64,000 bases of DNA from a virus. The notes below the pieces were generated by a model. It was not told where the DNA came from. It did no database searches and worked only from the letters and a program-made list of their open reading frames with translations. How positions within the stretch are numbered: the first letter of the stretch is position 1; each line of letters begins with the position of its first letter. This document shows positions 18,141 to 58,216 of the stretch, in pieces. Position numbers and translations under genes: made by a program. The stretch covers positions 3,557-67,556 of IMG/VR virus record IMGVR_UViG_3300029999_000001, one strand, 5' to 3'.

Positions 18141-19523
18141 ATGCCTAGTGAACTGAGGGAGGCGCTGACCGCCGCTGGCGCGTCCGCCCTCATCCCCAAG
18201 ATCATCGACCCGCAGCTCCTGGAGTACATGCGGCGCTTCTCACCCATGGTGCGGGCGATCCCCATGACCAAATGGGACGCGGACGTCTATTACTTCAACC
18301 AGCGCACCACCCTCGCGACCGGCGGGTTCGTGTCCGACGGCGGCGCAGTCCCCGTCTCCACCAGCACGTACGTGCAGAACAACTTCCAGATGAAGCACCT
18401 GCAGGTCGTCGGCGCGGTCACCGGCTACGCGCAGCAGGTCACCCGGCAGGTCATCGACGACCTGAGGCAGACTGAAATCGAGGGGGCCATTCAGGGTCTC
18501 CTGTGGGACATCGAAACCGGCATCGACTGGGGCAACTCCGCGTCCACGATCAACGGCGCCCGCCCCCAGTTCGACGGCTTGGACACCCTGGTGTCCACCT
18601 TCTCCGGGGCGACGCAGAACGCGCAGGACAAGGGCGGCAACACGCTCACCACGGCCATGTTCGATGAGGTCATCGACATGGTGCAGCAGAACGTGGCCAT
18701 GCCGATCCTCGGCTCCAACTGGATGTTCGTCGCATCGTCCACCGCGCAGAGCAAGATCTCGCAGTTGCTGCAGAACCAGCAGCGGTTCAACGACAAGGTG
18801 GAGGTCGCGCCGGGTCTCATGGTCGACTCGTACCGCAACATCCCGATCGTGCTGACGTCGTTCCTGTCGCCGCGGTCCTACCAGATGGGCACCGTGACCC
18901 CCGGCACCTCCAGCGCCGGGACGTGGGGCGGCTCGTACACGCTGAACGCCACCTACCGGTACGTCATCAGCCCGGTCATCGCCCGCCAGGGTGAGATCCT
19001 GCCGGCCGTTGAGGTTTCGCAGGCGGTCACGACCGGCAACGCGCTGACTCTGACGTTCTCGACGCCGAGCGGCTCGGACGGCGGCCAGCCGATCTCCTAC
19101 AAGGTCTACCGGACCGCAGCCGGCGGCGCGGCAGGCTCGGAGACGTTCCTCGGCTACGTCGATGGCACGGTCGGTCTCGCGGCTGACATGGTGACCCCGA
19201 TCCTGACGACCGGGATCGCGGACACCGGCACAGCCCTGGTTCCCTACAACGGGTCCACGGTGCCCGGCACCCTGCCGACGGCGTACTACGGCACCAACAC
19301 CGGCCTGTATCCGCTCGCGGCGGGCCTGGAGAACATCTACCTGATCTCCAGGGACCGGAACTTCGTGATCCGCCCGTACGTGCGTGAGTGCACTCCGCTC
19401 GATGTCTACCCGACCACGAGCAGCCCGGATACACTTCCTTTCGCTCTAGTCGATGACACCTGCCTGGCTGTCCGGGGCCCGAAGTACCTTGGCAGGCTGG
19501 CCCGGGTCGCGACTAGCGTCTGA
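18141..19523 (+). CDS. Major capsid protein with inserted beta-sandwich domain
   Basis: Follows the scaffold; MPSELREAL...IPKIID, QFDGL, YRNIPIV HK97-fold-like pattern; Thr/Gly-rich insertion YRYVI...SYKVYR. Confidence 0.85.
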   Translation: MPSELREALTAAGASALIPKIIDPQLLEYMRRFSPMVRAIPMTKWDADVYYFNQRTTLATGGFVSDGGAVPVSTSTYVQNNFQMKHLQVVGAVTGYAQQVTRQVIDDLRQTEIEGAIQGLLWDIETGIDWGNSASTINGARPQFDGLDTLVSTFSGATQNAQDKGGNTLTTAMFDEVIDMVQQNVAMPILGSNWMFVASSTAQSKISQLLQNQQRFNDKVEVAPGLMVDSYRNIPIVLTSFLSPRSYQMGTVTPGTSSAGTWGGSYTLNATYRYVISPVIARQGEILPAVEVSQAVTTGNALTLTFSTPSGSDGGQPISYKVYRTAAGGAAGSETFLGYVDGTVGLAADMVTPILTTGIADTGTALVPYNGSTVPGTLPTAYYGTNTGLYPLAAGLENIYLISRDRNFVIRPYVRECTPLDVYPTTSSPDTLPFALVDDTCLAVRGPKYLGRLARVATSV

Positions 19524-25070: not shown

Positions 25071-27827
25071 GTGGGCGTCATCCCGAGTCTCCCCCCGGTC
25101 GAGCAGGTCTTCACAGTCTCCGCCGGCGAGTTCATGGCCGGCATCAGCGAGATGCTGGAAGGGGTCGAAAAGCTAGCCGCCGGGATCGATGAGGTGGCAG
25201 CTGCGGCGGACCGGCTGAGCGCGGCCGCGGATGTGGCCGGGGAGGCTGACGACCGGCTCGCGGCGGGGATCGATGAAGTCGCCGCGTCCGCTGACCGGCT
25301 GGCCGTGGCCGCGGACATCGCCGCCGATGCTGACGAGCGGCTGTCGGCGGCGGAGCAGCTCGCGGCGATCGACGCGGAACGCCAGGCCGCCGCGGTTGAC
25401 GCGCTGGTCGCCTCGTGTGAGGAGACCGTCGCCGCAGTCGATGAGGCCACGGTTGCGATCGACCGGGAAACGGTCGCGCTGGAAGAATCCGGCGACGCCG
25501 CCAAAGACACCGGGGCGGAAGGCCTGGCCTTCGGCGGCATGATGAAGACTGCGCTGCTCGGGGTCGCTATCGCGGCCGGGATCGGGATCGAGCAGGCCGG
25601 GAAGTTCCAGCAGGGAATCACGCAGCTCCACACCCAGGCGGGGGTTGCCACCAGCCAGCTGGGCACCCTCAGCCAAGGGGTACTGAAGCTGGCGGGGGCG
25701 GTCGGGCAGGGCCCGGAGTCGCTGACCGAATCCCTGTACCACGTCGAAAGCAACATGGCGTCGCTGGGGATCTCCAGCGCGAAGGCCCTGAACATGGTTC
25801 AGGTCGCGGCCGAAGGCGCCGATGTGGGCCGCGCGTCCCTGGTCGACGTCACCAACGCCCTCACCGCCGCCGTCGCGTCCGGCATCCCCGGCGTACAGAA
25901 TTACCAGCAGGCAATGGGCGCCCTGAATGCCACCGTCGGTGCCGGTGACATGCAAATGCAAGACCTGGCCGACGCGATGGGCACTGGAATGCTCGCCGTC
26001 GTGAAAGGCTACGGCCTTTCATTGACCGATGTTGGCGCCGCGCTGGCGACATTTGGCGACAATAACATTAGAGGGGCTAAGGCAGGCACCGATTTGCGGA
26101 TGTCTGTGCAGGCCCTGGCTGTGCCGATGGCAACCGCAGGAGCGCAGCTCAGCGCACTGGGCATGAACAGCAAAACGCTCTCCACTGACATGGAGAACGG
26201 CGGGCTCATGAAAGCCCTAGACGACCTTACCAACCGGTTCCATAAAGCGGGAATAACCGCTAAAACCGAAGGTGAGGTAATCACCACCCTCTTTGGCAAG
26301 AAGGCCGGGGCGGGTGTGTCGATCCTGCTGGAGCAGATGAGCCGTCTCCAGTCCAAATACCCGCAGATCGAAAAGGCCGCTGGTGATTTCGGGAACGCCT
26401 GGCAGGGCCAGCAGAAGACTCTTTCCCAGCAGTGGGCCGACCTCAAAAACGGGGTGGACGCGCTTGCGATCTCGTTCGGGGAGAAGCTTCTGCCTGTGGC
26501 CACGAAGGTGGTCGGCGCGCTGGCTAAGTTTGCGAACTTCCTGGAGAAGAATCCGGCACTGGCTGCGTTCGCGGGGGCGCTCCTCGCGGTCGCAGCCGCG
26601 TTCAAACTCGTTGCTACCGCTGAGGCACTGTTCGACGCAGTCACCGATGCGAACCCGGTGATGCTGGTCCTCATGGCCGTGATCCTGCTTGCGGCCGGCC
26701 TGTACGAGCTGTACAAGCATTGCAAGCTGGTCCGGGATGCCGTGGCCGACGTCGGGAAGTTCTTCAAAGCCGCTGGCCACGACATAGCAGACGCCACCGA
26801 TGCTGTCCGGGAAACGGCCATACGGGCCGGTCACGACATAGAAGCAGCCTGGCATGACATAAAAAACGGCGTTGATGCTGTCCGGGAAACCTTCATCCGG
26901 GCCGGTCACGATATAGAGGCGGCCCTCAATGCGGTAGCGAAATGGATTTCCGGTCACTGGAAGGAAATCCTCGCCTGGCTGGTCGATCCGGTCGGCATGG
27001 CGGTCTTCGAAATCCGGACCCACACGCACGAAATCGCGCAGGCGTTCGATAAAATGCGTCATGATGTCGCCGCAATTCTTGACGACGCGCGCCACGACGT
27101 TTCCGCCGCATTCGATGATGTGCGCCATGATATCGCGGCATTCGCTGACTGGGTGCCGCGGGAAATAGAGGACGCCTGGGATACAGCCCGCCACGACACC
27201 ATGTCATTCCTCGATGGGCTGCGCCACGACATTTCCGCCGCGTTCGACTGGCTGGGCAGCACAACACGCTCGGTGATATCCGACGTGGTCGGCTTCTTTT
27301 CGAAGCTGCCGGGGGAGGCGCTACGTGAGCTGGAGGCCCTTCCCGGGCAGATGCTCACGGCCGGGAAGAACATTATCAACGGGCTGATTAATGGGATAAA
27401 GAACGCTGCGGCGGCCATTCCGGGCATTATGAAGGGCCTGGCGTCCGACGTGGAGAGCTACTTCACCGACCCGCTGAAGATGTTCTCCCCGTCGCGGGTG
27501 TTCTTCCAGCACGGCGTCAACACCCTCCAGGGGTACATCAACGGGCTGCGGTCGATGACCCCGCAGGTGCTTGCCGCGATGCACGAGATCGGCGGCCATG
27601 TCGCCAGCGGCGGGATCGGTGCTGCGGGCCTGGCCGTCGCCGGCGGCACTGCGGCCGGCGGGGGGACCGGGGGCGGGACGTCGATCGGGCCGATCACTCT
27701 GACCGTCAACGGGTTCGTCGGCAACCAGCAGGAACTGATGCAGCAGCTCTACTACCAGTTCCAGCAGATCGTGCTTCAGCAAAATCGGCGCAATAGCGTC
27801 AACGGCCTGTCCCTCACGCACCCGTAA
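25071..27827 (+). CDS. Tape measure protein (TP901-type core)
   Basis: 918 aa, Ala-rich; GAALATFGDNNIRGAKAGTDLR core; membrane segments; aromatic-spaced repeats. Confidence 0.95.
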   Translation: MGVIPSLPPVEQVFTVSAGEFMAGISEMLEGVEKLAAGIDEVAAAADRLSAAADVAGEADDRLAAGIDEVAASADRLAVAADIAADADERLSAAEQLAAIDAERQAAAVDALVASCEETVAAVDEATVAIDRETVALEESGDAAKDTGAEGLAFGGMMKTALLGVAIAAGIGIEQAGKFQQGITQLHTQAGVATSQLGTLSQGVLKLAGAVGQGPESLTESLYHVESNMASLGISSAKALNMVQVAAEGADVGRASLVDVTNALTAAVASGIPGVQNYQQAMGALNATVGAGDMQMQDLADAMGTGMLAVVKGYGLSLTDVGAALATFGDNNIRGAKAGTDLRMSVQALAVPMATAGAQLSALGMNSKTLSTDMENGGLMKALDDLTNRFHKAGITAKTEGEVITTLFGKKAGAGVSILLEQMSRLQSKYPQIEKAAGDFGNAWQGQQKTLSQQWADLKNGVDALAISFGEKLLPVATKVVGALAKFANFLEKNPALAAFAGALLAVAAAFKLVATAEALFDAVTDANPVMLVLMAVILLAAGLYELYKHCKLVRDAVADVGKFFKAAGHDIADATDAVRETAIRAGHDIEAAWHDIKNGVDAVRETFIRAGHDIEAALNAVAKWISGHWKEILAWLVDPVGMAVFEIRTHTHEIAQAFDKMRHDVAAILDDARHDVSAAFDDVRHDIAAFADWVPREIEDAWDTARHDTMSFLDGLRHDISAAFDWLGSTTRSVISDVVGFFSKLPGEALRELEALPGQMLTAGKNIINGLINGIKNAAAAIPGIMKGLASDVESYFTDPLKMFSPSRVFFQHGVNTLQGYINGLRSMTPQVLAAMHEIGGHVASGGIGAAGLAVAGGTAAGGGTGGGTSIGPITLTVNGFVGNQQELMQQLYYQFQQIVLQQNRRNSVNGLSLTHP

Positions 27828-45266: not shown

Positions 45267-47384
45267 ATGCCGCTGCCCGGCGACCTGAACCTGATCACCG
45301 TCACCGGCACCTACCTGGACATGCAAGGCAACCCGCTGTCCGGGTCGGTCACCTTCACCCCGTCAACCGCGCCGCTCGCCGACACGACAGGGGAGGTGAC
45401 TCTCGCCGGGATCCCGGTCGCCGCCAGTCTGACGGCTGAAGGCACGATCAGCGTCGTACTGCCGTGCACCGACCAGATGCCCGCCGCCGGCTACTGGGTG
45501 TGGCAGGTCACCGAAAACATCACCGGCAGCCCGGCCCGCACCTACGGCATCGCCCTCCCGCATTCGCTCGGCTCCACCGTGGACCTGTCCACGCTGGCGC
45601 CTGTGACCCCGCCGGCCGCGTTCGCGTCACCGAACGTCTGGGCAGCCACCCAGACGTTCGGCGGGACCCCTGCGATCGTCGTGCCCGCAGGCGCCGGAAA
45701 CGGGTACATCTGGACGTCCGACGCTGACGGCAACGGCTCCTGGCAGCCAGCAGCCCCGCTGGCATGGGTCAACGTCAAATCCTATGGGGCCACCGGGAAC
45801 GGGGTCACCGACGACTCAGCCGCGATCCAGGACGCCATCAACGCAGCCAGCGCCGTCAGCGGGACGGTTTACTTCCCGGCCGGAACCTACTACTCGGCGG
45901 GCACCGCCCTGACGGTCACCGCGCCGATCCGGCTCACCGGCACCTCCGCCTCAGTGCTCTTGTTCGCCAGCTCCGGCGGCATCAACTTCAGTAACACCTA
46001 CATTTCCGCCGGCAGTTTCAACAACGGCGGCACGGTGGGCCTGGAAATCGATCACCTGGTGTTCGACGTGACCGGCGGGGACATCTTCTACAACTGCAAC
46101 TGGAACAACTTCAGCCTGCATGACCTGCGGCTGATCCAGCGCAGCGCCGGGCATGCGGTGTGGTCCTGCTCGGGCAGCGTCAGCCTGCTCGCCGGGCTCG
46201 TGTCCAACGTTGTCTCCAACGTCGCCGGGACAGGCCGGACGGTCCCCGGCTGGAACCTGGTCTCGTCCATCGGCGGCGGCATCGCCCTGCTGACCTTCCT
46301 CAACTGCCACTTCGGGAACCTCAGCCACGACAATGCCCAGCCTGCCGTGTGGATCGAATGCAACGGCACCCACAACTACACCGCGAGCATCAAATGGGTG
46401 GGCTGCACGTGGGACTCGGCTTACGGCGGGGCGGTGCACGCCCTGTCGGCCAAATACTGGTCGTTCGACACATGCGAGATCATCGACACCAGCACGTACA
46501 CCGTCGCGGCGAGCATGTTCTACCTCGGGGCCAGCACCGGCGGCTCCCAGTGGCCATCCGATCACGTCACCTTCCGGGACTGCTCCCGTGACCTGCAAGG
46601 ACCCAACGGCTCGTCCTACTGGGACATCTACTGCGAATCCACCTGCGACACCATCACCGTCGCCAGCTACGGTGTCCGCGACATTCCCGGCGTGTCAATC
46701 TTCTACCCGTACTTCAACTTCAGCGGCTGCACGAACGTTCTCATCGAGAACTGCCCGGGCGCCGTGGTCACCAGCGCTCCCAGCTCGGGGGTGACGCTCG
46801 GGCCGGGCGGGAACATCTCCTACACCGGGACGCTGGCCGGTGCGGCATTCCCGGACACGACTCTCCCGGGCGACCTCGGGTTCCAGGCGTGGACGTCCGA
46901 CCCAGCCGAAGCATCCGGTGGCGGCACGCTCGCGGTGGGCGGCACGGTCTACCTCGCCGCCATATACACGCGCGGCAGCATCACCATCAACTACCTGTAC
47001 TTCTCGCTGACCAACGCCGCTTCCGGTGCGGTCTCCGGGGAGAACTACATCGGGATCTACAGCTCATCAGGCACCCTGCTCGGCTCGGTGGAGGTGACGT
47101 CGGCTCTCGGGACCACCGACAAGATGATCAAGGCGACGCTCTCGTCGTCTCTGACCCTCAGCGCGGGCTACTACTGGGTCGCTGTCGTGTTCAACGCCTC
47201 CACCACCGAGCCGCAGCTCATGCGCGCGAACAACACCAACTTCGGTGTCTACAACGGTGAGCTCGGAACCTCATCCCTCCGGTACACGTCGAACGGGACC
47301 GGTCAGACCTCGCTGCCGTCATCGATCACCCCGTCGGGCAACAGCACGACCACCGGCATCCCGTTCTGGGCAGCGGCCGGCTAG
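45267..47384 (+). CDS. Tail spike with pectate-lyase-like beta-helix
   Basis: WVNVKSYGATGNGVTDDSAAIQDAINAA...VYFPAGTY. Confidence 0.85.
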   Translation: MPLPGDLNLITVTGTYLDMQGNPLSGSVTFTPSTAPLADTTGEVTLAGIPVAASLTAEGTISVVLPCTDQMPAAGYWVWQVTENITGSPARTYGIALPHSLGSTVDLSTLAPVTPPAAFASPNVWAATQTFGGTPAIVVPAGAGNGYIWTSDADGNGSWQPAAPLAWVNVKSYGATGNGVTDDSAAIQDAINAASAVSGTVYFPAGTYYSAGTALTVTAPIRLTGTSASVLLFASSGGINFSNTYISAGSFNNGGTVGLEIDHLVFDVTGGDIFYNCNWNNFSLHDLRLIQRSAGHAVWSCSGSVSLLAGLVSNVVSNVAGTGRTVPGWNLVSSIGGGIALLTFLNCHFGNLSHDNAQPAVWIECNGTHNYTASIKWVGCTWDSAYGGAVHALSAKYWSFDTCEIIDTSTYTVAASMFYLGASTGGSQWPSDHVTFRDCSRDLQGPNGSSYWDIYCESTCDTITVASYGVRDIPGVSIFYPYFNFSGCTNVLIENCPGAVVTSAPSSGVTLGPGGNISYTGTLAGAAFPDTTLPGDLGFQAWTSDPAEASGGGTLAVGGTVYLAAIYTRGSITINYLYFSLTNAASGAVSGENYIGIYSSSGTLLGSVEVTSALGTTDKMIKATLSSSLTLSAGYYWVAVVFNASTTEPQLMRANNTNFGVYNGELGTSSLRYTSNGTGQTSLPSSITPSGNSTTTGIPFWAAAG

Positions 47385-48772: not shown

Positions 48773-48787
48773 GCGCAGGTAAACGAA

Positions 48788-48837
48788 ACGCCCGTCCGGC
48801 TCTGGTCCTTCGGGACCGGGCCGGGCGGGCGTCTTTC
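48788..48837. terminator. Long UUCG-capped hairpin between convergent operons
   Basis: ACGCCCGTCCGGCTCTGGTCC-TTCG-GGACCGGGCCGGGCGGGCGT. Confidence 0.75.
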
Positions 48838-48944
48838 GCATGCCCAGGTTTCGCGGTCTCGCCGCTGCGGGTATCACCTATGTGACCGGGGCTGAGCGCT
48901 GGCCTTGGGGAAGGTAACTCCGGGCACACCGATCGGTGTCACTC

Positions 48945-50816
48945 TCAGAGATTACCCTCCAGGGCACCGAGAGAGTCAATCTCCCGGTCGAGTTCTTCAG
49001 TAAGCCACTGAACGGCATTCTCCTGTTCCCGTGTATCACGGGACAGTTTTCCTGATATGACGCTGACGTAATGCACGGCTATCGGGGAACCGGCGATAAG
49101 ACCCGTGATGGACGCCCACACCAGGAGTCCCGCCCAGGTGGAGGCAAGCCCCGCAAAAGCCAGGGCAAGTACCGCCACACTCCATACCACCCAGATCAGG
49201 TGGGAACGGAATGTGCGGAGACTGTCCGGGCTGGCAAGATCACCTTTCGGGGTGACCTTGTACACCAGTTTCCGGCCGGACAGGCTCGCTGCCGCCGCTG
49301 ACACATACACGGGAATTGTCATCAGCATGAGCGCCATTCCCGGCATTCCCCATTCGCGTCGCTCATGGTCTGCGAGGTTGAATTTCCGCAGCCACATGAA
49401 CAGTGCGAGACTGAACACCATGGAACTCGCCCACAGTGGCGCCCAGTAAGAGATAGGCAGTTCCAGGGACACCCGGGACACCATGTACAGGGATGTCAGG
49501 GCAATCGACAGCATCCAGGACAGCGCGGTCAGCGGGTAAAACGACTGGATCAGCGCGTACGCGAACTTGTGGGACAGTTTCGTTCTCGGCAGCACACGCG
49601 GGGAATCATGCAGGACAATCTCCCAGATGCCGTACGCCCATCGTTTCTGCTGAATGAACCAGTCAGTGAACGATGTCGGGCCCGTCCCGAGAGCTACCAC
49701 GTCAGGGGTGTACACACCCTTCCACCGGTTCCCGGTGCGGGGGTTGAACTGGGTGTACATCTCCATCGCGGTGAGGTGGTCTTCCACGATGGCGTCCTGG
49801 TAGCCGCCCATCTGCTCCCAGCAGGAAACCCGGCACAGGTGGTTCGTGCCGATGAGCAGCGGTGCGTCCAGCCCGTTGAGACCATGCTGCACGGACCCGT
49901 GGAACACGTATGCGAGCTGCGCTGAGGCGCGGGCAATCCAGGATTCTTCCACGTTCCCGTACACCTGAGGGGCAACGACGAACCCGGTGTCAGGGTCGTT
50001 GAAATATCCCAGGGTCCGGGTCAGGAAATCGGGGAACGGAACATGGTCCGGGTCCATCTGCGCCACAATGTCGTAGTCTTCACCATGCTGGTCGTGCCAC
50101 GAATTGTGGTTCCCGGCCTTGCTTTTCGTCCGGAACGGCCCGCTGGGCTGATGGTATCGTTCGATACCGTTCCGGCTGAAATGGTTCACGCCGATCCGGG
50201 CGCACATTTCCCGGACCTCAGGTGAGTTCCCCTCATCCAGCAGCCACACATCAAACGTGCCGTGCATGGCCCTCATTGCCCGGAGAGTATTTTCCACCAT
50301 TCCGGTAGGTTCTTTCCCCGGCACGATGGTGGTCATCACTGCGACCCGCAGCCCCAGTGACTTGTCGGCCCGCAAGGGGATGGGAACCCGCGCCCTGGTG
50401 GTGAAGACAGCCAGGGAAACAGAACCCACGAAGCGGGTGGCTTCCAGTGCGACCATCAGCACAAGCAGCGACACAGCAGCTGCCCCGCTGAGGGTGGCCG
50501 CTGCGACAAGCCATGCCATGAGCGCCAGGCCGGCGGCGGTGACAGTCCCCGCGAGAGCGGCAAGAATGAGGCTCTGGCCCCGGGACAGCAGTGGCCGGTA
50601 AAGCACCTTGTTCCCGCTGGTGAGGGGACCGGTGTTTGTGCTGGTCCCCTTGTACTGGTGGTCTGGGGGAAGAAAATGGTTTACTTCCCTGGGTTTGCTC
50701 TGGGCCTGCTGGATCAGGTCGAGGAACATGGCGGAGGTATCTTCCCCGACCGTGTTCCTGTCCAGCACAGACCGCGCTGACCTGCCCAGGCCCGTAGCGC
50801 TGTGGCGGCCCGTCAT
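48945..50816 (-). CDS. Processive GT2 glycosyltransferase (cellulose-synthase-like)
   Basis: LLDEG, KAGN, MDPDH (DxD), VEDH, QQKRW (QxxRW), YKVTPKG; N- and C-terminal TM helices; no PilZ-like tail. Confidence 0.92.
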   Translation of the reverse strand: MTGRHSATGLGRSARSVLDRNTVGEDTSAMFLDLIQQAQSKPREVNHFLPPDHQYKGTSTNTGPLTSGNKVLYRPLLSRGQSLILAALAGTVTAAGLALMAWLVAAATLSGAAAVSLLVLMVALEATRFVGSVSLAVFTTRARVPIPLRADKSLGLRVAVMTTIVPGKEPTGMVENTLRAMRAMHGTFDVWLLDEGNSPEVREMCARIGVNHFSRNGIERYHQPSGPFRTKSKAGNHNSWHDQHGEDYDIVAQMDPDHVPFPDFLTRTLGYFNDPDTGFVVAPQVYGNVEESWIARASAQLAYVFHGSVQHGLNGLDAPLLIGTNHLCRVSCWEQMGGYQDAIVEDHLTAMEMYTQFNPRTGNRWKGVYTPDVVALGTGPTSFTDWFIQQKRWAYGIWEIVLHDSPRVLPRTKLSHKFAYALIQSFYPLTALSWMLSIALTSLYMVSRVSLELPISYWAPLWASSMVFSLALFMWLRKFNLADHERREWGMPGMALMLMTIPVYVSAAAASLSGRKLVYKVTPKGDLASPDSLRTFRSHLIWVVWSVAVLALAFAGLASTWAGLLVWASITGLIAGSPIAVHYVSVISGKLSRDTREQENAVQWLTEELDREIDSLGALEGNL

Positions 50817-51853
50817 GCGACGTACGGTCCGGCAGGGCTGTACACCCGCACCCAGTCAACCGCCATGACCTCGTGCGGCAGTGAACCAGCAGCCGGGGTG
50901 CTGCCCACGACGCTCTGATTGACTGCGCAGTTCATGACAATGCACAGTCCCTCGCCGGGCTGGTTGTAGGGCCATTCCTGCCCGCCGAACTGGGCGCTGA
51001 TTCCCGTCTGCGCCCCGAATGCGGCATTCACCTGCGCCTGCGTGATCGTGTACTGGAGCACGCCGTCGATGTATGCGTTCAGGTGATCGGTGAAGTAGTC
51101 CAGCCGGTAGGTGTGGTAGTTCCCGTCACCCAGATTGAATGGGGTCCGGGCGGCGCCGACCTTGGTGCTCAGGTTCTGCTGTGCGGTTGCGCCCGGCCCC
51201 CATGCGGTGTTCTGGGTGAGCGCCGGGTTGCCGTCGAAAATCCCGGATTCCATCAGGTCGAACTCGTAGTAGTCGGCGGGGTATGCGCCGCCGACGGCAC
51301 CGGGGCTGGTGAACCACAGGGACGGCCACAGCCCCTCCAGCGGCATGGTTTTCGCGGAGAACTCCACCGACTGCCCTGGGAGCACGGCGACCTTGGGAGT
51401 CTTCCCGTGCGTGATGAACACCCCGTCATCGAACTGCCCGGGGCTAGCGAACGTGTCCACCCTGGGGGCGGGCCAGTATCCTGCCTGCGCGCCGAGACTG
51501 CCCGGCGCGCCGACCGTGAAGATCAGGTTCGTGTCACCGTCCTGCGCGACCAGTGCCGGGTTCGCAAGGTACTGCTCCTGGTCCCCATTTCCGAACGCTT
51601 CCGGGTTCTGCGGGCCGGATGTCGTGTTGATGACGTTCCAGTTCGCCGAGTTGGGCAGGCTCCCGGCCGGGGCAGTGAAATCATCGAAGAAGACAGTGGT
51701 CGACATCCCGGACGGGGGTGGCGTCACGGGTGGCGGGACTACCGGGGGATCCACGGTGATGGGGCCGTCGGATGTGACAGTGACGGTCATACCGTCGCTC
51801 GTTGACACCGTGACGGTCGATGCGGTGGCGGTTCCCGCAGTGGGCTGGGACAT
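50813..51853 (-). CDS. GH16 glycoside hydrolase
   Basis: FFDDF, EQY, GLWPSLW, EFDLME (ExDxxE), YHTYRLDY, VDWVRVY. Confidence 0.9.
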   Translation of the reverse strand: MSQPTAGTATASTVTVSTSDGMTVTVTSDGPITVDPPVVPPPVTPPPSGMSTTVFFDDFTAPAGSLPNSANWNVINTTSGPQNPEAFGNGDQEQYLANPALVAQDGDTNLIFTVGAPGSLGAQAGYWPAPRVDTFASPGQFDDGVFITHGKTPKVAVLPGQSVEFSAKTMPLEGLWPSLWFTSPGAVGGAYPADYYEFDLMESGIFDGNPALTQNTAWGPGATAQQNLSTKVGAARTPFNLGDGNYHTYRLDYFTDHLNAYIDGVLQYTITQAQVNAAFGAQTGISAQFGGQEWPYNQPGEGLCIVMNCAVNQSVVGSTPAAGSLPHEVMAVDWVRVYSPAGPYVA

Positions 51854-51855
51854 TC

Positions 51856-52041
51856 TTAACTGGCTCCTTCAGGTGGGGAACTTCTCTCATCGCGCCGGGA
51901 ACGGATCCGGTGCATGACGGTGACCACGCCATTGATGGCCGCGTAAACGAGCAGGGAGGCGCCCGCCCAGAGAATGACAACGGCAACAGCGAAGACACCC
52001 AGCGCGGCGAAGGCGGCGATCACGGCGAGAACACCGGTCAC
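51856..52041 (-). CDS. Small membrane protein
   Basis: Hydrophobic N-terminal 40 aa; ATGA coupling. Confidence 0.6.
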   Translation of the reverse strand: MTGVLAVIAAFAALGVFAVAVVILWAGASLLVYAAINGVVTVMHRIRSRRDERSSPPEGAS

Positions 52042-52574
52042 GGCTGCCCGGCCTCTCCGGGGGCCGCGGGCTCATGTGTCTCGGCGAACACATCAGGGCG
52101 GCACGGGTAGAACTCGTTCCGGATGCCCTTGATGATCCAGTCGCCGTCGTATACGCGAACCCAGGTGCTGTGCAGCTTGTCCAGGACCGCAGCGGTCTGG
52201 TCAGGATCTTCGCCGCGGTCTTCCGGGTCAACGGCGTAAAAGTGCCCCGTCCCCGTCAGCTCCTGAACCTCCCGGAGGTTCGCGCCGGTCCACTGGACAG
52301 CCTTTATGACCACGGGCTTCTTGCGGTAGCGCCCGGGTTCTGCGGTCGCGTCCGATTCCCCTTCCGCGTCCCCGGTGATGGCCTCACACTGGCGGGTGAT
52401 CTCCGCATCCTTCGCCTCAAGCACCGGGCCGACCACGGTCATGACCGCGGAAATCAGATCGGGGTTGATCAGAACGGGGTCATCTGCGGTGAAGCCACGC
52501 TTGAGGAACTCGCGGCAGATGCCCTGCTCAACCTCGGCGGGAGAAGCAGCGAGGAGAGGGTCCGGGCCGGTCAT
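52038..52574 (-). CDS. Phage protein with YRKKPVVIxAVQW domain
   Basis: YRKKPVVIKAVQWTG...GDWIIKG..NEFYPCRPDVF, a widespread phage family pattern. Confidence 0.75.
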   Translation of the reverse strand: MTGPDPLLAASPAEVEQGICREFLKRGFTADDPVLINPDLISAVMTVVGPVLEAKDAEITRQCEAITGDAEGESDATAEPGRYRKKPVVIKAVQWTGANLREVQELTGTGHFYAVDPEDRGEDPDQTAAVLDKLHSTWVRVYDGDWIIKGIRNEFYPCRPDVFAETHEPAAPGEAGQP

Positions 52575-52840
52575 GCGGCATCGCCATGGCTGGTCTCAGG
52601 GAACGGCTCGCCGGTCACGGTGAGGCCGAGCTCGTGCATCAGGTCAGCCTTGCGTACCCGGTAGAACCGGCCGATCCGCATCACCCGGCACGGGAACTCC
52701 CCGGCGCGGGCCATCTCGTGGGCCTTGGTGCGCCCGAGACCGAACGCCCGGCCCGCAGCCGGCAAGTCCATCGTCACCGGCAGGCCGAGCAGTTCCTCCA
52801 GGCTCATCCGCAGTGACTGCGGTTCCTGATCTTTCGCCAT
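52571..52840 (-). CDS. xis: Excisionase-like HTH protein
   Basis: LPAAGRAFGLGRTKAHEMARAGEFP..V.RIGRFYRV; divergent from the repressor and integrase. Confidence 0.8.
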   Translation of the reverse strand: MAKDQEPQSLRMSLEELLGLPVTMDLPAAGRAFGLGRTKAHEMARAGEFPCRVMRIGRFYRVRKADLMHELGLTVTGEPFPETSHGDAA

Positions 52841-52859
52841 CACATCTACCCCACGCCAG

Positions 52860-52997
52860 GTCGGCACTGAACCCGGAAAGTCGGCACTGATGCCGTCCCG
52901 GGTGGCTGGGCCCTAGATTGCCCCACCCGTACCGCGCTGTCAAGCCTCATGCCGATCCGTCTGGACTCATGCCGACCCGTGCGGCTAAGCTCGCGGT
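52860..52997. promoter_or_regulatory. Lysis-lysogeny switch: divergent promoters and four operator-like repeats
   Basis: Leftward TTGACA-17-CAATCT; rightward TGGACT-18-TAAGCT-6-GTG (leaderless repressor); GTCGGCACTGA at 52860 and 52880; CTCATGCCGAYCCGT at 52946 and 52966. Confidence 0.75.
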
Positions 52998-53606
52998 GTG
53001 GACAACGAAAACGGCAGGCCGCCAGACGCTGACCAGCTACCCGTGCGGCGCATCTCGATCAATCAGGTCGTCGCCTGGAACATGGCCTACTTCCGCCGGA
53101 TAGCGGACATCACCCAGGAAGGACTCGGCGAGCTGATCGGCGGCAGGCCCAAGACCGCCGTCTCCGCCGATGAGCGCTCATGGGACGGGAAACGGACCCG
53201 CGAGTTCGACGCCCACAGCATCACGCTCATCGCCGAGGCGCTCGGTGTGCCGATCATCGCCCTGTTCCTGCCGCCCGAAGACGACGGCCTCAGCGAGCAG
53301 TACGTCTACGACGCCGGCACCGGGCAGGGCTTCATGACCGACCTGATGCAGGCCGTACTCCCCAACACCGGAGACCGGACACCTGTCATGGACGCCTACC
53401 GGAAACGATTTCAGAACGCCGTCACCTACTATGCGGACCCGACGTTCGGTGAGCAGGTCGCCCGGTTCCTGCGGGACGCCACCGACGACGAGCTGCGCGC
53501 CGACCGCGCTTCGCGGATCCGCCAGCGGCAAGCCGACCTTGAGGGAGTGGCCGCCGAGCTCGGGGAGATCGCGGAAGCACTGGAGAACCCGGAGGCTGGC
53601 CAGTGA
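52998..53606 (+). CDS. XRE-type immunity repressor
   Basis: VAWNMAYFRRIADITQEGLGELIG...AVSADER HTH; coupled to the integrase. Confidence 0.75.
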   Translation: MDNENGRPPDADQLPVRRISINQVVAWNMAYFRRIADITQEGLGELIGGRPKTAVSADERSWDGKRTREFDAHSITLIAEALGVPIIALFLPPEDDGLSEQYVYDAGTGQGFMTDLMQAVLPNTGDRTPVMDAYRKRFQNAVTYYADPTFGEQVARFLRDATDDELRADRASRIRQRQADLEGVAAELGEIAEALENPEAGQ

Positions 53607-54991
53607 GCGAACCGGTCTACAAGCGCTGCAAATGCCGCGACGCTGACGGCAAGGACATCGGCGTGTCCTGCCCGAAGCTGAAACGGGCCGACGGGTCATG
53701 GAATCCGAAGCACGGGACGTGGTACTTCGCGCTCGAGCTGCCGCCCGGCCCCGGCGGCAAGCGGCGGCCGAGGCTGCGCCGCGGTGGGTACGAAACACGC
53801 GAGGCGGCGGCGGATGCCCGGGATCAGGCCAGGGCCACGCTCCGCAGGGGCGTTGACCCGTCCGTCAAGACGATGACCGGCAAGTACCTCACCACCTGGC
53901 TCGCTGGCCGCCGCGACCTCAAGCCGACCACCCGGCACAACTACGAGGTCAGCATCAGCACCTACCTGGTCCCGCTGCTGGGGCACATTGAGCTGAGCAG
54001 GCTTCAGCCGGAGCACATCGCGGACGCCTTCGCCACGATCAGGGAATGGAACGACCTGCTTCTCTCGGGGCAGCCGGTCCGCAAGTACCAGCGGCACGTC
54101 GGGCCCGCAGCGATGCAGCGGATCCGCAACGTCCTTCAGTCCGCGCTGCGGGATGCGATCAAGGCACGGATGATCGAGTTCAACGCCGCGAAGCTCGTCA
54201 GCATGGACCCGGTAACGTCCCAGAAGCCGATGATGTGGACGGCTGAGCGGGCACGGAAGTTCTGGGCCGGCTACGAGGAAGCACTCGAAGCCTCTCCGCT
54301 GACCCGCGGGGACAGGGCTTTCCTGGTGTGGCGGTCCGTCGCGCTGCGGCCCTTCCCGGTGATGGTGTGGAATCTGAGCGACCTCGGGGCCTTCCTCGAC
54401 TACGCCGCTGGGCATCGCCTCTCCCCCGTGTTCGAGCTTGCCGCCGGCACGGGGATGCGCCGCGGTGAGCTGTGCGGGCTGCGCTGGACGGATGTGGACC
54501 TGGATCAGAGCATCCTCTACATCACGCCGGGCGGGGTGCGTGTCCAGGCCGGATGGGAAGTCTTCGAAGGCGGCCCGAAGACAGAAGCGGGCGGCCGGGA
54601 GGTCCCGCTCATCGACCAGGACACCGGGACGCTCCGGGCGTGGAAGCGGCAGCAGAACCGGGAGCGGCTCTCCTGGGGCAGCGACTGGCAGGACAGCGGC
54701 CTTGTCTTCACCCATGAGGACGGGTCGGCATGGCACCCGGAGGCTGTGACTGATGCTTTCGAGCGGCTCGCGTTCGCCGCGCATCTCCCGCCGGTCCGGC
54801 TGCATGACATCCGGCACGCGCACATCTCCCAGTTGCTTGCCGCCGGGGTCGATGTCCGGATCGTTTCGGAGCGGGTCGGTCACTCCGGGAGCAAGATGAC
54901 CCGCGACTACGCGGCGGTGGCGGCTGAGGTCTCCCGGCAGGCCGCCGCGACGATTGTCGGGATGATCCCGAGGAAAGCAGGTGGGCAATGA
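53603..54991 (+). CDS. int: Tyrosine integrase
   Basis: GMRRGELCGLRW, PKT, LHDIRH, GHS and DY catalytic residues; N-terminal arm-binding region. Confidence 0.95.
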   Translation: MSEPVYKRCKCRDADGKDIGVSCPKLKRADGSWNPKHGTWYFALELPPGPGGKRRPRLRRGGYETREAAADARDQARATLRRGVDPSVKTMTGKYLTTWLAGRRDLKPTTRHNYEVSISTYLVPLLGHIELSRLQPEHIADAFATIREWNDLLLSGQPVRKYQRHVGPAAMQRIRNVLQSALRDAIKARMIEFNAAKLVSMDPVTSQKPMMWTAERARKFWAGYEEALEASPLTRGDRAFLVWRSVALRPFPVMVWNLSDLGAFLDYAAGHRLSPVFELAAGTGMRRGELCGLRWTDVDLDQSILYITPGGVRVQAGWEVFEGGPKTEAGGREVPLIDQDTGTLRAWKRQQNRERLSWGSDWQDSGLVFTHEDGSAWHPEAVTDAFERLAFAAHLPPVRLHDIRHAHISQLLAAGVDVRIVSERVGHSGSKMTRDYAAVAAEVSRQAAATIVGMIPRKAGGQ

Positions 54992-55200: not shown

Positions 55201-55215
55201 TTGGCGTGATTCCGG

Positions 55216-55497
55216 GCGGACTCCAAATGGACTCCCCCGCACCGCTCCGGGTGGGGGGCCGGAAAACGGCAGATGCGCGGCCGCATGCCCAGGGCCTATG
55301 GGTGGGAGCCGGTGAGCGGATTCGAACCGCTGACCTGCCGTTTACAAGACGCCGGGAGTTCATGTCGCCCGAAATAGACTCATGTCGGGCACATGGAGTT
55401 CGCGCAGGTCAGGGGAGAGGCAGATCAGCTTTCCGGGTCATCTCGTATCGCCTCAAAAGGCCCAACTCCAGGCCGTGCGGACTCCAAATGGACTCCC
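55216..55497. mobile_element. attP site with arm-type repeats
   Basis: Perfect 21-bp direct repeat GCGGACTCCAAATGGACTCCC at 55216-55236 and 55477-55497, flanking a tRNA-derived core, immediately downstream of int. Confidence 0.85.
55303..55351 (-). other. att core: 3' half of tRNA-Thr(UGU)
   Basis: Minus strand CGT-CTTGTAA-ACGGC-AGGTC-AGCGG-TTCGAAT-CCGCT-CACCGGCTCC; no D-arm or 5' acceptor strand upstream. Confidence 0.88.
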
Positions 55498-56127: not shown

Positions 56128-56514
56128 TTACCGATGCCGTCTCCGCTTCGCCCGCAATGACGGCTTGACGTGCAGCGCCGGGCCGGAGTTCGCGCACGGG
56201 TTGCAGGTGGCGCAGCGGATGTGAGCGCTGGGGTTGCTGGCCGCGTGATAGTCGTGGGCGGCGAAAAGGGGCTGCAGCGTCGCCGCCATCCGCTGAAAGC
56301 CCCGCATGAGCGAGGTTACTTCCGGGATGACGATCACGTTGTAGTAGTAGGTGCTGTGCCGCAGAACGCTCCACCGTTCCGGCCAGATTGCGCCGCCCCC
56401 GTCGCAGATGATCCGTCCGGCGTCCGGGTTCCACCGCATCGCGTCGCTGCTGGTCGTGGAGTCCTCAAGGGCGCCGTCGATCGCGGCGAGGACGCCGGGA
56501 GTGTCAGTGGTCAC
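56128..56514 (-). CDS. Hypothetical protein (leaderless)
   Basis: CAGAAT 7 nt before GTG 56514; HIRCATCNPCAN near the C-terminus. Confidence 0.55.
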   Translation of the reverse strand: MTTDTPGVLAAIDGALEDSTTSSDAMRWNPDAGRIICDGGGAIWPERWSVLRHSTYYYNVIVIPEVTSLMRGFQRMAATLQPLFAAHDYHAASNPSAHIRCATCNPCANSGPALHVKPSLRAKRRRHR

Positions 56515-56603
56515 GGCTACCATTCTGCACGGCAACGGCCCGGAACCAGCGCTCTGGGCGCGATCCCGGGCCGCTCAGGGCCGTGGTGGGCGCGGCCCTG
56601 GTC

Positions 56604-56945
56604 TCAGCCGGTTAAAACGAGGCGTTTGCCTAGCGCGCACTCAAGCGGGATGGTGTCCGGGGCCCTGGGGAGCAGGCCCGCGTAGGAGGCCAGGTCGTAC
56701 GGAAGCCTGCTGAACTCTCCGGTGGTGATAATGAGCTCGGGGACGCCCGCTTCTAGCCGGCGGTGATGCCGGAGCCGCACGTGAGTCTCGTTCTCGGTGA
56801 CGTCCAGGCAGCCGATGCGTGTCATCGCAGTGGCATCGCCATGGCGATCCCACCGCCGACACTGCGCTGAAGGACACCGGCCGGGGGTGTGAGGATCTCT
56901 GGCTGCTCGATGCTGTTGGAGAAGCTGTTGCCGTACACAGGTCAC
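56604..56945 (-). CDS. Hypothetical protein (start probably MTRIGCLDV, ~56825)
   Basis: ORF track; the 3' half looks protein-like. Confidence 0.45.
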   Translation of the reverse strand: MTCVRQQLLQQHRAARDPHTPGRCPSAQCRRWDRHGDATAMTRIGCLDVTENETHVRLRHHRRLEAGVPELIITTGEFSRLPYDLASYAGLLPRAPDTIPLECALGKRLVLTG

Positions 56946-56990
56946 ACTCCTGTCGTTGCGGGCGGTCAGCGGGTTGCGGATCCGCCATGC

Positions 56991-57179
56991 TCAGCCTTCG
57001 TAAACATAGTTGGGCTTGACGCCGTTGTGGAGGTAGGCACCATAGTGGGCCACGCCGCCGTACCGCAGCGCCACCACGACGGCGGCAGTCATGGCCAGGG
57101 CGATCAGGGCCAGCATGGCTAGGCGCATGGCGGGGGCTAGGCGCATGGCGGGGATTGTGTGCAGGACTCCGGGCTTCAT
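56991..57179 (-). CDS. Small secreted or membrane-anchored peptide (62 aa)
   Basis: GAAGGAGA RBS; basic N-region, hydrophobic MLALIALAMTAAVVVAL, polar C-tail ...NGVKPNYVYEG. Confidence 0.7.
   Translation of the reverse strand: MKPGVLHTIPAMRLAPAMRLAMLALIALAMTAAVVVALRYGGVAHYGAYLHNGVKPNYVYEG
57117..57152. repeat. 18-bp tandem duplication
   Basis: GGCTAGGCGCATGGCGGG twice (encodes PAMRLA twice). Confidence 0.9.
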
Positions 57180-57216
57180 GGTTCTCCTTCGCGGGATGTC
57201 CCTTATGCCCGCAGGA

Positions 57217-57633
57217 TCACTTGTTCCCGGGATGTCCGGAAGCGGGAACATTCACGGGAACCACCGACAGGCCAATATGGGCGACCTGGCCGAGCTCGTT
57301 GTGGCAGTACGGGCAGCGTGCGAGAGAAGTTACCGTCAGCATTGGCCCGGCATCCTCCCCCGGGGGCAGTGGCGGCAGGTGCCGGGTGCCGGCCATCGCC
57401 TCGATAGCAGCATGAGCCTTGATGAACACGCCGCCCGCGGCGAGCTCACGGTCCATCACCTGCCAGAACCGCGCAGACCGGCGGGCACCGGTTTCCGCGT
57501 TCGCGATCGTGGTCCGCTTGAACGGGGTCCGTGCGGCGAGCTGGTCTTGTGTCAGCCCGGCGGCGTGGCGGCGGTCCGCGAGCTGGTGGCCGAGATCCGC
57601 GAGCGCGGCGTCAACCTCGGCGGGGGTGGCCAC
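57217..57633 (-). CDS. XRE-family HTH regulator
   Basis: LGHQLADRRHAAGLTQDQLAARTPFKRTTIANAETG; C-terminal CPYC. Confidence 0.85.
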   Translation of the reverse strand: MATPAEVDAALADLGHQLADRRHAAGLTQDQLAARTPFKRTTIANAETGARRSARFWQVMDRELAAGGVFIKAHAAIEAMAGTRHLPPLPPGEDAGPMLTVTSLARCPYCHNELGQVAHIGLSVVPVNVPASGHPGNK

Positions 57634-57761: not shown

Positions 57762-57977
57762 TTATCCGGGTGGGGTGTCTGGAACGTCGGCCTCGGTGGC
57801 CGACTCGCCGTGGCTGCACCCGTCATCCCAGACCTGAGACAGCACATCCGTCAGCCTGGCACGCTGCTGCGCGTCCAGGCCGCACGGAACAATGTCGCTG
57901 ATACGGGTGTGGGCTCTGGCGATGCAGTCACCGCGGGCGTGCTTGCGCATGATCTCAGGGTCAGGCATGGGGCTCAT
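57762..57977 (-). CDS. Hypothetical protein
   Basis: ORF track; ATGA-type coupling. Confidence 0.5.
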   Translation of the reverse strand: MSPMPDPEIMRKHARGDCIARAHTRISDIVPCGLDAQQRARLTDVLSQVWDDGCSHGESATEADVPDTPPG

Positions 57978-58216
57978 TCTGAGTAGGGGTCTGGGATTCC
58001 ACCAGGCAGCAACGTGATCAGAGCCATTATCTCGTCAGAGAGGTCGTCAATTGTCTGGCCGGGAACGAGAGCGGCCAAGCGACTATCCAGCAGGCGGACG
58101 ATCGCGTCATGCAGATCGCTCGCGCCGACCCACTTGACGCCCTTCTCTGTCGTCATGCCGGCGCGTATCACGATCAGGAGATCATTCGGCTTCTGCTCGG
58201 GTTGGTCGTCACTCAT
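57974..58216 (-). CDS. Hypothetical protein
   Basis: GAGGAG RBS before ATG 58216 (MSDDQPEQ). Confidence 0.55.
   Translation of the reverse strand: MSDDQPEQKPNDLLIVIRAGMTTEKGVKWVGASDLHDAIVRLLDSRLAALVPGQTIDDLSDEIMALITLLPGGIPDPYSE

Follow-up and report, generated by a model that had tools for sequence, protein, structure and literature searches.

Synthases paired with a dedicated glycanase are known from Streptomyces, where the CslA-GlxA-CslZ(-LpmP) system for an apical cellulose-like glycan combines CslA-GlxA, which produces cellulose in vitro and in which full CslA activity requires GlxA (PMC11022532), with CslZ, a membrane-bound lipoprotein glycanase required for glycan deposition (PMC9040799). 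The proteobacterial BcsA-BcsB-BcsZ system follows the same logic of synthase plus endoglucanase. Among viruses, the chloroviruses PBCV-1 and CVK2 encode hyaluronan and chitin synthases, processive GT2 enzymes that make a host-surface polysaccharide, and co-express an early beta-1,3-glucanase whose role is unexplained (PMC5408694). Genes for surface-glycan modification are also associated with phages near int/att, as in GtrABC-type serotype conversion and the annotated phage 'cellulose synthases'; the LP-13-6-adjacent 'cellulose synthase' cluster of Listeria lies outside the prophage boundary (PMC12006667). Here, we compare these systems with a phage locus that encodes a CslA-family GT2 synthase and a GH16 beta-glucanase-like enzyme.

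The window analysed, a stretch of 64,000 nucleotides (positions 3,557 to 67,556 of IMG/VR record IMGVR_UViG_3300029999_000001), belongs to a record of 100,323 bases with a CheckV completeness of 100%. Upstream phage genes encode the major capsid protein, tape measure, minor tails, tail fibres, a GH25 lysin and a pectate-lyase-like spike; with capsid, tail and lysis genes in the same genome, the pair is indeed phage-borne, as the initial annotation had it. Its further claim of adjacency to int and attP also holds. A divergent operon of orf202 and a 462-aa tyrosine integrase (52998..54991, plus strand; PF00589, 2.5e-22; phrog_1, 3.5e-59) places the integrase gene itself at 53603-54991 (+), orf202 being 75% identical in the relative L087. 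In a site recognized from sequence as attP-like (55212..55497), direct repeats of 25 bp (55212-55236 and 55473-55497) lie on either side of a core that corresponds to the 3' half of a tRNA-Thr(TGT) gene (55303-55351). There is no second copy in the 100-kb record, and host tRNA contigs agree with the core alone and then diverge. Further along, an XRE-type (HTH_31) regulator (57217..57633, minus strand; PF13560, 9.3e-10) is the probable immunity repressor. Taken as one joint account, we consider it reasonably probable that the phage is a temperate siphovirus-like actinophage from peat, that its genome of ~100 kb, to which the window belongs, is complete and unintegrated, and that beside int/attP it carries an accessory glycan module whose enzymes change the surface glycan of the host.

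The pair closes a five-gene minus-strand operon that runs from a putative promoter region to a hairpin in the order excisionase-like HTH_17 gene, P0003, a 61-aa membrane ORF (TM61), GH16 and GT2. The DNA-binding protein at its head (52571..52867, with a likelier start at 52843/52840) scores 29.4 bits against a PF12728 cut-off of 27; its L087 counterpart, at 76% identity, also faces away from orf202-int in a divergent arrangement. P0003 (52038..52574, minus strand; 178 aa) has a C-terminal domain found in phrog_1810/phrog_419 (PHROGs, 8.8e-27), and its first 60 residues match those in the relative L088 at 88% identity. TM61 (51856..52041, minus strand), which lies between P0003 and GH16 and does not figure in the initial annotation, is predicted to form two helices, with ~40 hydrophobic residues followed by a basic tail. 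Its gene call is moderately secure (GC3 0.69); L087 and L088 have non-homologous small TM ORFs at the corresponding position.

The earlier placement of GT2 (48945-50816), GH16 (50813-51853) and the xis-like gene (52571-52867), all on the minus strand, stands, and the statement that no terminator follows xis was, if anything, understated. The junctions consist of a 4-nt overlap (xis/P0003), a GTGA in which the GTG start of TM61 overlaps the P0003 stop, a 2-nt gap (TM61/GH16) and an ATGA (GH16/GT2). Within the operon a strong Shine-Dalgarno sequence (GAAGGAG) precedes GH16 only, and translation of GT2 is, to judge from the ATGA overlap, coupled to the GH16 stop. The sole strong hairpin, terminator-like and bidirectional (48784..48836; -52.7 kcal/mol, z -5.66, 0/200 shuffles as good), lies downstream of GT2, separating the GT2 stop from the point where the plus-strand late/lysis genes end. 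The operon leaves no intergenic room for an internal promoter; one could still lie inside coding sequence. A putative promoter/operator region (52860..52943, minus strand) contains a -35-like TTGACA (52943-52938) and two TCAGTGCCGAC repeats (52890-52880 and 52870-52860) that overlap the leader of the HTH_17 gene and look operator-like. L087 keeps these three elements; assignment of a -10 element is uncertain, and a consensus promoter scan did not call the region.

The GT2 gene (48945..50816, minus strand) encodes a processive membrane synthase of 623 aa (Pfam PF13632/PF13641; TIGR03030 CelA, 1.8e-21), with a predicted layout of two N-terminal and ~4-5 C-terminal membrane helices and a YKVTPK gating loop. 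The motifs that the initial annotation described as intact are LLDEGN 192, DPDH 255, VEDH 344, QQKRW 389 and VTPKG 521, all of which are invariant in an alignment of 30 family members. An AF2 model (pLDDT 88.8, pTM 0.84) finds BcsA 4p00 by Foldseek (E 3.5e-20, TM 0.60), the structural matches being, best first, BcsA, plant CesA and chlorovirus hyaluronan synthase. BcsA therefore offers the best structural match, with the same catalytic and gating motifs; however, the phage GT2 is only ~20% identical to it and lacks the PilZ domain, BcsB and the outer-membrane BcsC, and its glycanase partner belongs to GH16 rather than GH8. The resemblance to the chlorovirus synthases extends to an exchangeable synthase slot, whereas those enzymes belong to another GT2 subfamily (~12% identity), serve an infection of a eukaryotic algal host, are not encoded in an operon and have no association with lysogeny. 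Gtr enzymes decorate an existing polymer via a lipid carrier; the phage GT2, according to its model, would instead be a channel-forming polymerase.

Streptomyces CslA, which the initial annotation named as its model, is an apt comparison: the phage GT2 is a full-length CslA homologue with catalytic and channel architecture intact. It is collinear over 572 aa, at 37% identity, with a Streptomyces GT2 whose gene overlaps one encoding a GlxA domain (that is, cslA), and it shares the GPLT N-terminal segment, the 2+4-5 TM layout, the VTPKGD gating loop and the absence of PilZ. The phage enzyme is nevertheless a paralogue rather than an orthologue of CslA, because one Streptomyces genome has both a 51% copy and a 39% cslA copy. 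Unlike the Streptomyces system, the module is phage-carried and comes without a GlxA copper oxidase or LPMO, and its glycanase is a GH16 rather than a GH6 enzyme, devoid of lipobox and signal peptide and co-transcribed upstream rather than divergent. Since CslA needs GlxA and the phage has no GlxA-like gene, the GT2 may, by analogy, depend on a partner supplied by the host or have only weak activity by itself. Its closest relatives (44-58% identity, in 298 species genomes) belong to chromosomal actinobacterial 'CslA-like 2' loci, a subfamily for which a literature search found no publication and which is apparently uncharacterised. These loci, too, habitually pair the synthase with a glycoside hydrolase (GH26 in 37/86, GH16 in 15/86 and GH12 in 13/86); most use GH26 and/or GH12, and their GH16s differ from the phage enzyme in having a signal peptide, lipobox or TM anchor.

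The GH16 gene (50813..51853, minus strand) encodes 346 aa with a catalytic domain at ~47-342. Its Pfam GH16 and SKN1 matches fall slightly below cut-offs; against the PDB, phmmer aligns residues 47-342 with the 1,3-beta-glucanase 7eo3 (1.5e-13), EFDLME being in register with EFDIME, and by sequence the enzyme most resembles beta-1,3-glucanases. The earlier reading of an intact GH16 without an obvious signal peptide is borne out in both parts: EFDLME, at 197-202, is invariant in 18 relatives (18-sequence alignment), and the protein has neither a hydrophobic N-terminus nor any recognisable export signal. Where N-terminus comparison shows a signal peptide or lipobox in the cellular versions, the phage protein has a conserved beta-hairpin and a Pro/Thr linker. 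If GH16 stays in the cytoplasm, it could not trim extruded polymer as BcsZ and CslZ do.

The pair was found in at least three phage backbones. Two of these, L002 (GC 0.567, with a Thy1/HNH backbone) and L003, have only GH16 and GT2 in common with the present phage; the pair thus behaves as a mobile module. Its accessory status is seen in two close relatives of the phage, L088 and L090: the flanks of the GT2 slot are conserved there, but the slot is filled by different DNA. The GT2s carried by phages group in a single clade (SH-aLRT 92) whose sister is a chromosomal Streptosporangiaceae copy, the sister copy L007 having a Kelch/galactose-oxidase-like neighbour. Among 50,697 isolated-phage records there was no close GT2 homologue and no GH16 homologue, the only sequenced-phage match to GT2 of any length being the annotated 'cellulose synthase' of Synechococcus phage S-CBWM1, which aligns with 49% of the query at 29% identity. 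As the pair is phage-borne, the GT2 a full-length CslA homologue of intact architecture and the GH16 intact and coupled to it, the most economical reading is that the phage encodes de novo beta-glucan synthesis.

When such synthesis would take place bears on its purpose. The initial annotation proposed that the pair is switched on at induction or early infection, and a possible if doubtful alternative builds on this: the operon would be repressed in lysogeny and fire at those times, by analogy with the chloroviruses, and the resulting glucan mat would block adsorption or clump doomed cells. Excisionase genes are classically silent in lysogens, an excisionase-like gene heads this operon, and conserved operator-like repeats overlap its leader; the HTH_17 protein is, however, only a putative Xis by sequence. 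Chlorovirus has/chs and beta-1,3-glucanase are expressed early, and has/chs exchange at one slot, like the GT2 slot here (PMC5408694). In a peat metatranscriptome, exact contigs fall on GT2, GH16 and P0003 (52130-52352) and on the immunity region (56445-57194, depth 16.4, and 57779-58180), and the same library holds no exact contig on late genes or int. This RNA evidence consists of six short contigs from one library, without strand or abundance information; were the signal DNA carry-over, the chance of the late genes being missed by luck would be ~6%. The pattern hints weakly at expression of the operon at times other than the late lytic phase, and it lends no support to switch-on at induction. 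Lysogeny-like expression suits it at least equally well; early infection would yield the same pattern.

Rather unlikely, in our estimation, is an arrangement centred on GH16, in which the signal-less enzyme attacks a CslA-type or related beta-glucan of the host, reached by release at lysis (destroying receptor or matrix and freeing progeny) or by unrecognised export, with GT2 as an optional add-on. Some 17 phage-type GH16s are 69-83% identical and share the same N-terminus, and a Pro/Thr linker is a typical feature of actinobacterial glycanases that act outside the cell. Actinomycete genomes, moreover, have GT2s of this family on the chromosome. L088 and L090 keep GH16 at 77-84% with the GT2 slot replaced, so the two genes are not obligatorily linked, nor is GH16 merely an accessory of the synthase. 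Against GT2 as an add-on, the pair enters unrelated phage backbones as a unit (L002, L003) and translation of GT2 is tied to the GH16 stop, while GH16 sits in an int-proximal operon away from the lysis genes.

The absence of any export signal also invites comparison with NdvB enzymes (GT2+GH17), which produce cyclic beta-1,3-glucans, the GH16 family itself including transglycosylases. By this analogy, GT2 and a cytoplasm-facing GH16 transglycosylase would yield short, branched or cyclic beta-glucans with an osmoprotectant or sequestering role rather than a surface polymer. We find this improbable: in the GT2 model the transmembrane channel is complete and BcsA-like and the gating loop is present, so the product should exit the cytoplasm, and where this GT2 family has a GH16 partner in cellular genomes, that partner is exported or anchored.

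Still less probable is an auxiliary metabolic gene for carbon cycling, with GH16 digesting environmental beta-glucans, or passive cargo of captured host DNA without a phage role. Peat viromes have been reported with active glycoside hydrolases read as auxiliary metabolic genes (PMC6786970), and base composition is consistent with recent acquisition in that GC3 of GT2 is below that of the rest of the phage. The A/T-richness relative to the tail genes that had been noted for both genes is clear for GT2 (GC 0.611, GC3 0.748) and only marginal for GH16 (GC 0.654, GC3 0.83), tail and capsid genes having GC3 of 0.88-0.90. However, GH16 lacks the secretion signal expected of a nutritional enzyme, the phage GT2s are conserved at 59-77% across several backbones with motifs intact, and the pair is tightly built into its operon. 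Actinophages do glycosylate virions, and in relatives of this phage additional genes for GTs and epimerases lie in this region, but decoration of capsid or tail proteins, as in some mycobacteriophages, is scarcely credible here. The GT2 model shows a synthase that crosses the membrane several times and has a translocation channel, unlike a soluble protein glycosyltransferase, and its gene lies near int in an operon that runs counter to the structural genes.

De novo beta-glucan synthesis would proceed as follows. The GT2 synthase would be placed in the host membrane and consume a host UDP-sugar, most likely UDP-glucose, with no need of c-di-GMP, as it has no PilZ domain. A beta-linked glucan would be polymerised and extruded via the synthase's own channel, and GH16 would cut or transglycosylate either this polymer or the host's own related one. 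The net effect would be an altered surface glycan, so that the module probably remodels the surface of the host cell. Since the phage tail carries several glycan-degrading spikes, the most likely benefit would be altered adsorption of other phages, which might include the receptor masking first suggested; alternatively, the polymer may change aggregation or protect the infected or lysogenic cell.

The phage appears to carry a complete CslA-type polymerase, encoded by the last gene of a minus-strand operon (52867 to 48945). The operon comprises an HTH_17 xis-like gene (52571-52867), a gene for a 178-aa phrog_1810/419 protein (P0003; 52038-52574), a 61-aa ORF (51856-52041), the GH16 gene (50813-51853; 346 aa) and the GT2 gene (48945-50816; 623 aa). 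The hydrophobic 61-aa ORF was absent from the initial annotation and brings the count from four to five. In operon order, neighbouring genes overlap by 4 nt at the first junction, through GTGA at the second and through ATGA at the fourth, and are 2 nt apart at the third, so that there is no intergenic space for a separate promoter, which could lie only inside a gene. The earlier observation that no terminator is evident behind the xis gene is thereby strengthened, since the genes overlap or abut. A strong ribosome-binding site (GAAGGAG) precedes GH16 and none precedes GT2, the translation of which must therefore depend on coupling to the GH16 stop. The first gene is predicted to be excisionase-like by virtue of its HTH_17 domain (PF12728, 29.4 bits against a cut-off of 27, in a protein of approximately 90-98 aa) and its integrase neighbourhood, as it lies 130 bp from the divergent orf202-integrase pair (52998-54991, plus strand).

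Upstream of the operon, a TTGACA element and two TCAGTGCCGAC repeats are kept in L087, a related phage contig. This conservation is the sole basis for citing TTGACA as a -35 element; a consensus promoter scan called no minus-strand promoter in the operon. Downstream, a predicted terminator-like hairpin (48784-48836; 17+7-bp, z -5.7) can end transcription of the late operon and of the GT2 operon alike.

GT2 has the motifs, channel and gating loop of a processive, membrane-integrated GT2 of the cellulose synthase superfamily. Its catalytic motifs, D194 (LLDEGN), D255/D257 (DPDH), E345-D346 (VEDH) and Q389-W393 (QQKRW), are invariant in an alignment of 30 relatives and align to those of BcsA, while T522 and K524 are invariant within the gating loop YKVTPK (residues 519-524). 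The AF2 model (pLDDT 88.8, pTM 0.84) places helices at residues 79-140 and 383-622, and Foldseek ranks BcsA first against it (E 3.5e-20, TM 0.60, 576 columns), followed by plant CesA and then chlorovirus hyaluronan synthase. The enzyme is not BcsA proper, which is marked by a C-terminal PilZ domain and a BcsB partner: Pfam and NCBIfam gave no PilZ match in GT2 (TIGR03030 scored 75.9 against a cut-off of 699) and profile searches found no BcsB domain in the other four operon genes. It also differs from Gtr-type serotype conversion, which employs the flippase GtrA, the bactoprenol glucosyltransferase GtrB and a serotype-specific GtrC, in being of the channel-forming polymerase type; no GtrA (PF04138) or GtrB-type match occurs among the operon genes.

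The link to CslA comes from Streptomyces. GT2 matches a protein of Streptomyces sp. NBC_00191 at 37% over 572 residues (E 3e-121; query 51-597 against 40-604), and the gene downstream of that protein overlaps it and encodes a GlxA beta-barrel (PF21110) with galactose-oxidase domains. This Streptomyces genome holds two GT2 copies, 51% and 39% identical to that of the phage, and it is the 39% copy that aligns in this way and that its GlxA neighbour identifies as cslA. By these alignments, the phage GT2 is a paralogue and not an orthologue of CslA. Together with GlxA, CslA makes cellulose in vitro (PMC11022532). The phage enzyme shares full-length homology with Streptomyces CslA, but the GlxA partner and the GH6 CslZ are missing from the phage ORFs searched: neither Pfam nor PHROGs reported a Kelch, GlxA or GH6 domain in the selected ORFs of the window that were covered, namely the operon genes, the genes divergent from them, the main genes for structure, tail and lysis, and ORFs to the right of attP.

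The GT2 family is large, with more than 1000 database proteins and members in 298 species genomes, mostly of Actinoplanes, Kitasatospora, Streptomyces, Geodermatophilaceae and Micromonospora, with some in Saccharibacteria. At 86 chromosomal loci, the gene that follows GT2 encodes GH26 (37/86), GH16 (15/86) or GH12 with a ricin domain (13/86). A glycoside hydrolase is thus a typical neighbour, and the pairing of a synthase with a dedicated glycanase is a trait of the family. GH26, GH12 and GH16 all have documented activity on mixed-linkage beta-1,3-1,4-glucan, which provides a lead to this polymer as the putative product. Our literature search, the coverage of which was incomplete, returned nothing relevant on this GH26/GH12/GH16-linked subfamily.

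Several loci of the family deserve separate description. In a Streptosporangiaceae MAG contig, the chromosomal GT2 that is sister to the phage-borne clade (L007:12013-13659) is followed by a Kelch/galactose-oxidase-like protein and no glycoside hydrolase, a layout that stands midway between CslA-GlxA and GT2-GH loci. Kitasatospora, Streptomyces and Yinghuangia loci (L033, L038 and others) have DUF2510 upstream and GH26 directly downstream, often with GH12 and a ricin lectin domain. In three Candidatus Saccharibacteria MAG contigs (L014, L023 and L082), GT2 genes with 47-49% identity adjoin exported GH16 genes, which suggests gene exchange between epibionts and their actinobacterial hosts. Two further GT2 homologues (P0044 and P0072; 721-723 aa) possess an additional GtrA-like PF04138 domain.

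The GH16 protein is probably a divergent member of its family, a call based on alignments to PDB entries. It falls below the Pfam cut-offs (PF00722, 21.4 bits against 22; PF03935, 24.7 against 30), and residues 47-342 align over the full domain with the 1,3-beta-glucanase 7eo3 (E 1.5e-13), with its EFDLME (197-202) in register with EFDIME of that enzyme. E197, D199 and E202 are invariant in an 18-sequence alignment. Its closest solved relatives are exclusively 1,3-beta-glucanases or laminarinases, a lead towards a putative beta-1,3 or beta-1,3-1,4 glucan specificity. The AF2 model, built from the shallow 18-row alignment, has a pLDDT of 49 and is too poor for a fold search or for the N-terminal motif; the complex prediction for GT2 with GH16 scored 0.00, which speaks neither for nor against binding.

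The first 46 residues of GH16 contain no signal peptide and consist of a two-strand motif, rich in Thr and Val, and then a (V)TPP linker. This N-terminus is common to about 17 metagenomic relatives, which are 69-83% identical; the GH16s that adjoin cellular members of the GT2 family mostly have a signal peptide, a lipobox or a membrane anchor at their start. The apparent swap of an export signal for a beta-hairpin/linker N-terminus is thus a conserved feature of the phage-type GH16. The motif might have been a shared module for docking to the virion, but a search for it in the rest of the phage returned low-complexity noise only. A GH16 that lacks a signal yet otherwise looks extracellular poses a concrete question of protein localization.

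The window is 64 kb of an IMG/VR virus record of 100,323 b, complete by CheckV; overall GC is approximately 0.67. On the plus strand, a siphovirus-type late region includes the major capsid protein (18054-19523), the tape measure (25071-27827), minor tail and fibre genes, a pectate-lyase-like spike (45267-47384), a GH25 lysin-like gene and a small lysis-like set. Beyond the orf202-integrase pair, an attP-like core equal to the 3' half of tRNA-Thr(TGT) lies at 55303-55351, in a single copy in the record, and host tRNA-Thr contigs from metagenomes and metatranscriptomes agree with this core alone and diverge beyond it. The partial tRNA, the lack of a second copy and the match of host contigs to the core only lead us to read the site as attP, and hence the record as the genome of an unintegrated temperate phage. 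Direct repeats of 25 bp flank the core (55212-55236 and 55473-55497, one mismatch between copies) and are candidate integrase arm-binding sites.

At least 23 metagenome runs from peat contain the phage. The closest chromosomal GT2 is that of the Streptosporangiaceae MAG, and no prophage relative of the capsid protein was found in 201 genomes of the order to which this MAG belongs. Among 50,697 records of isolated phages there is neither a close GT2 homologue nor a GH16 homologue. A single-sequence scan of IMG/VR recovered only L005 for GT2, to which an alignment scan added L006, and gave no match for GH16.

Comparison of phage-like contigs shows that the pair moves as a module. GH16 and GT2 are the sole genes that our phage has in common with L002 (GC 0.567) and L003, two contigs of different backbones, and a 120-kb viral contig (L004/L005) encodes a GT2 with 59% identity preceded by a different type of GH16. 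In a maximum-likelihood tree, the four phage-borne GT2s form one clade (SH-aLRT 92) with the chromosomal Streptosporangiaceae copy as sister, and the remainder largely tracks host taxonomy. The GC3 of GT2, 0.748 against 0.87-0.90 elsewhere in the phage, is consistent with import from a lower-GC phage. Two relatives, L088 and L090, have 80-88% nucleotide identity to our phage, in patches, and keep GH16, which other DNA separates from the intergenic region conserved downstream (48846-48938 of the window). GT2 is thus an accessory gene that can be exchanged, and GH16 is useful without it.

L087 has the same int-orf202-xis-GH16-GT2 layout, together with an extra GH16/GT2/epimerase set. Its GT2 is spread across four frames in a contig that resembles a long-read assembly, and we make no claim of pseudogenization because assembly error may be responsible. 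L089, considered as a natural GT2 deletion, proved by DNA alignment to be a copy of the L002 phage truncated where its contig stops. Low depth over GT2 in one DNA run (X5) and short-sided joints (48546>51321 and others) were unusable as evidence for GT2-less variants.

The int-proximal region of the relatives is a variable glycan island (L087:7859-10687; L088:14971-18533; L090:4804-9941) encoding a GH16_XgeA-type enzyme, a small GT2, GT4 enzymes, Gly_transf_sug, methyltransferases and an NAD-dependent epimerase/dehydratase. On an ENA contig of 6788 b, the gene for a phage-type GH16 of 361 aa precedes those for a 586-aa protein that matches nothing in Pfam and for a different, 521-aa processive-type GT2, in that order, an arrangement which indicates that the phage-type GH16 can pair with other synthases. 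The L004/L005 contig (IMGVR_UViG_3300032805_000001) also encodes an FtsK/SpoIIIE-like translocase, an NlpC/P60 hydrolase and a DUF3631 protein, all of them features that integrative conjugative elements of actinomycetes typically have as well, so that it may be either a phage or a conjugative element.

The reading that we favour, with somewhat better than even confidence, is that of a phage-borne, mobile surface-glycan module. The CslA-family GT2 would polymerize beta-glucan from a host UDP-sugar and extrude the product, and GH16 would then process this polymer or a related one. The main rival readings differ from it over the timing of expression, over GH16 as the primary function and over GH16 acting in the cytoplasm.

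On timing, some RNA evidence is available. In one peat metatranscriptome, zero-mismatch contigs cover 49061-49263 (GT2), 51345-51495 (GH16) and 52130-52352 (P0003), and no exact contig falls on int or on the late-gene sequence (6.9 kb). Taken from a small sample in which strand and level are not given, these contigs hint weakly at transcription of the operon at times when late genes are silent, and both lysogenic and early expression are compatible with them. The initial annotation had proposed beta-glucan synthesis switched on at induction or early infection; expression at induction only gains no support from contigs that cover the operon and neither late genes nor int, though it could still apply. 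Further zero-mismatch contigs at 56445-57194 (the strongest, depth 16.4) and 57779-58180 flank an XRE-type regulator (57217-57633). The former lies just downstream of the regulator and spans an 86-aa membrane ORF (56991-57251) and sequence with no convincing ORF, and possibly represents lysogeny-expressed genes or a non-coding RNA.

Bacteriophage surface conversion is usually conceived as the decoration of existing polymers and, to our knowledge, good documentation of virus-encoded polymerizing sugar synthases is confined to the algal giant viruses. CslA-type enzymes build a protective glucan at actinomycete hyphal tips. Our search of the literature, again of incomplete coverage, found nothing relevant on a phage-borne CslA-like synthase. 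From this context we infer that the benefit to the phage may be the exclusion of other phages, or changed aggregation or protection: the tail carries several glycan-degrading enzymes, the CslA glycan of Streptomyces is protective and required for pellet formation (PMC9040799), and chloroviruses are a precedent for a virus-encoded surface-polysaccharide synthase (PMC5408694). A bolder and rather improbable version holds that the self-contained, horizontally mobile GH16 and CslA-family pair gives the hosts of temperate actinophages a new surface beta-glucan, that the beta-hairpin and Pro/Thr linker of GH16 are an unrecognized export or synthase-docking device in place of the lipobox, and that the coat serves superinfection exclusion at the growing pole.

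Our results suggest that phages of filamentous or soil actinobacteria can endow their hosts with a new wall polymer. A gene annotated in peat viromes as a 'glycoside hydrolase AMG' may, accordingly, belong to a surface-remodelling module and not to carbon degradation, and the two-gene module of the phage would offer a convenient handle on the product of its chromosomal sister family, which spans some 300 species.
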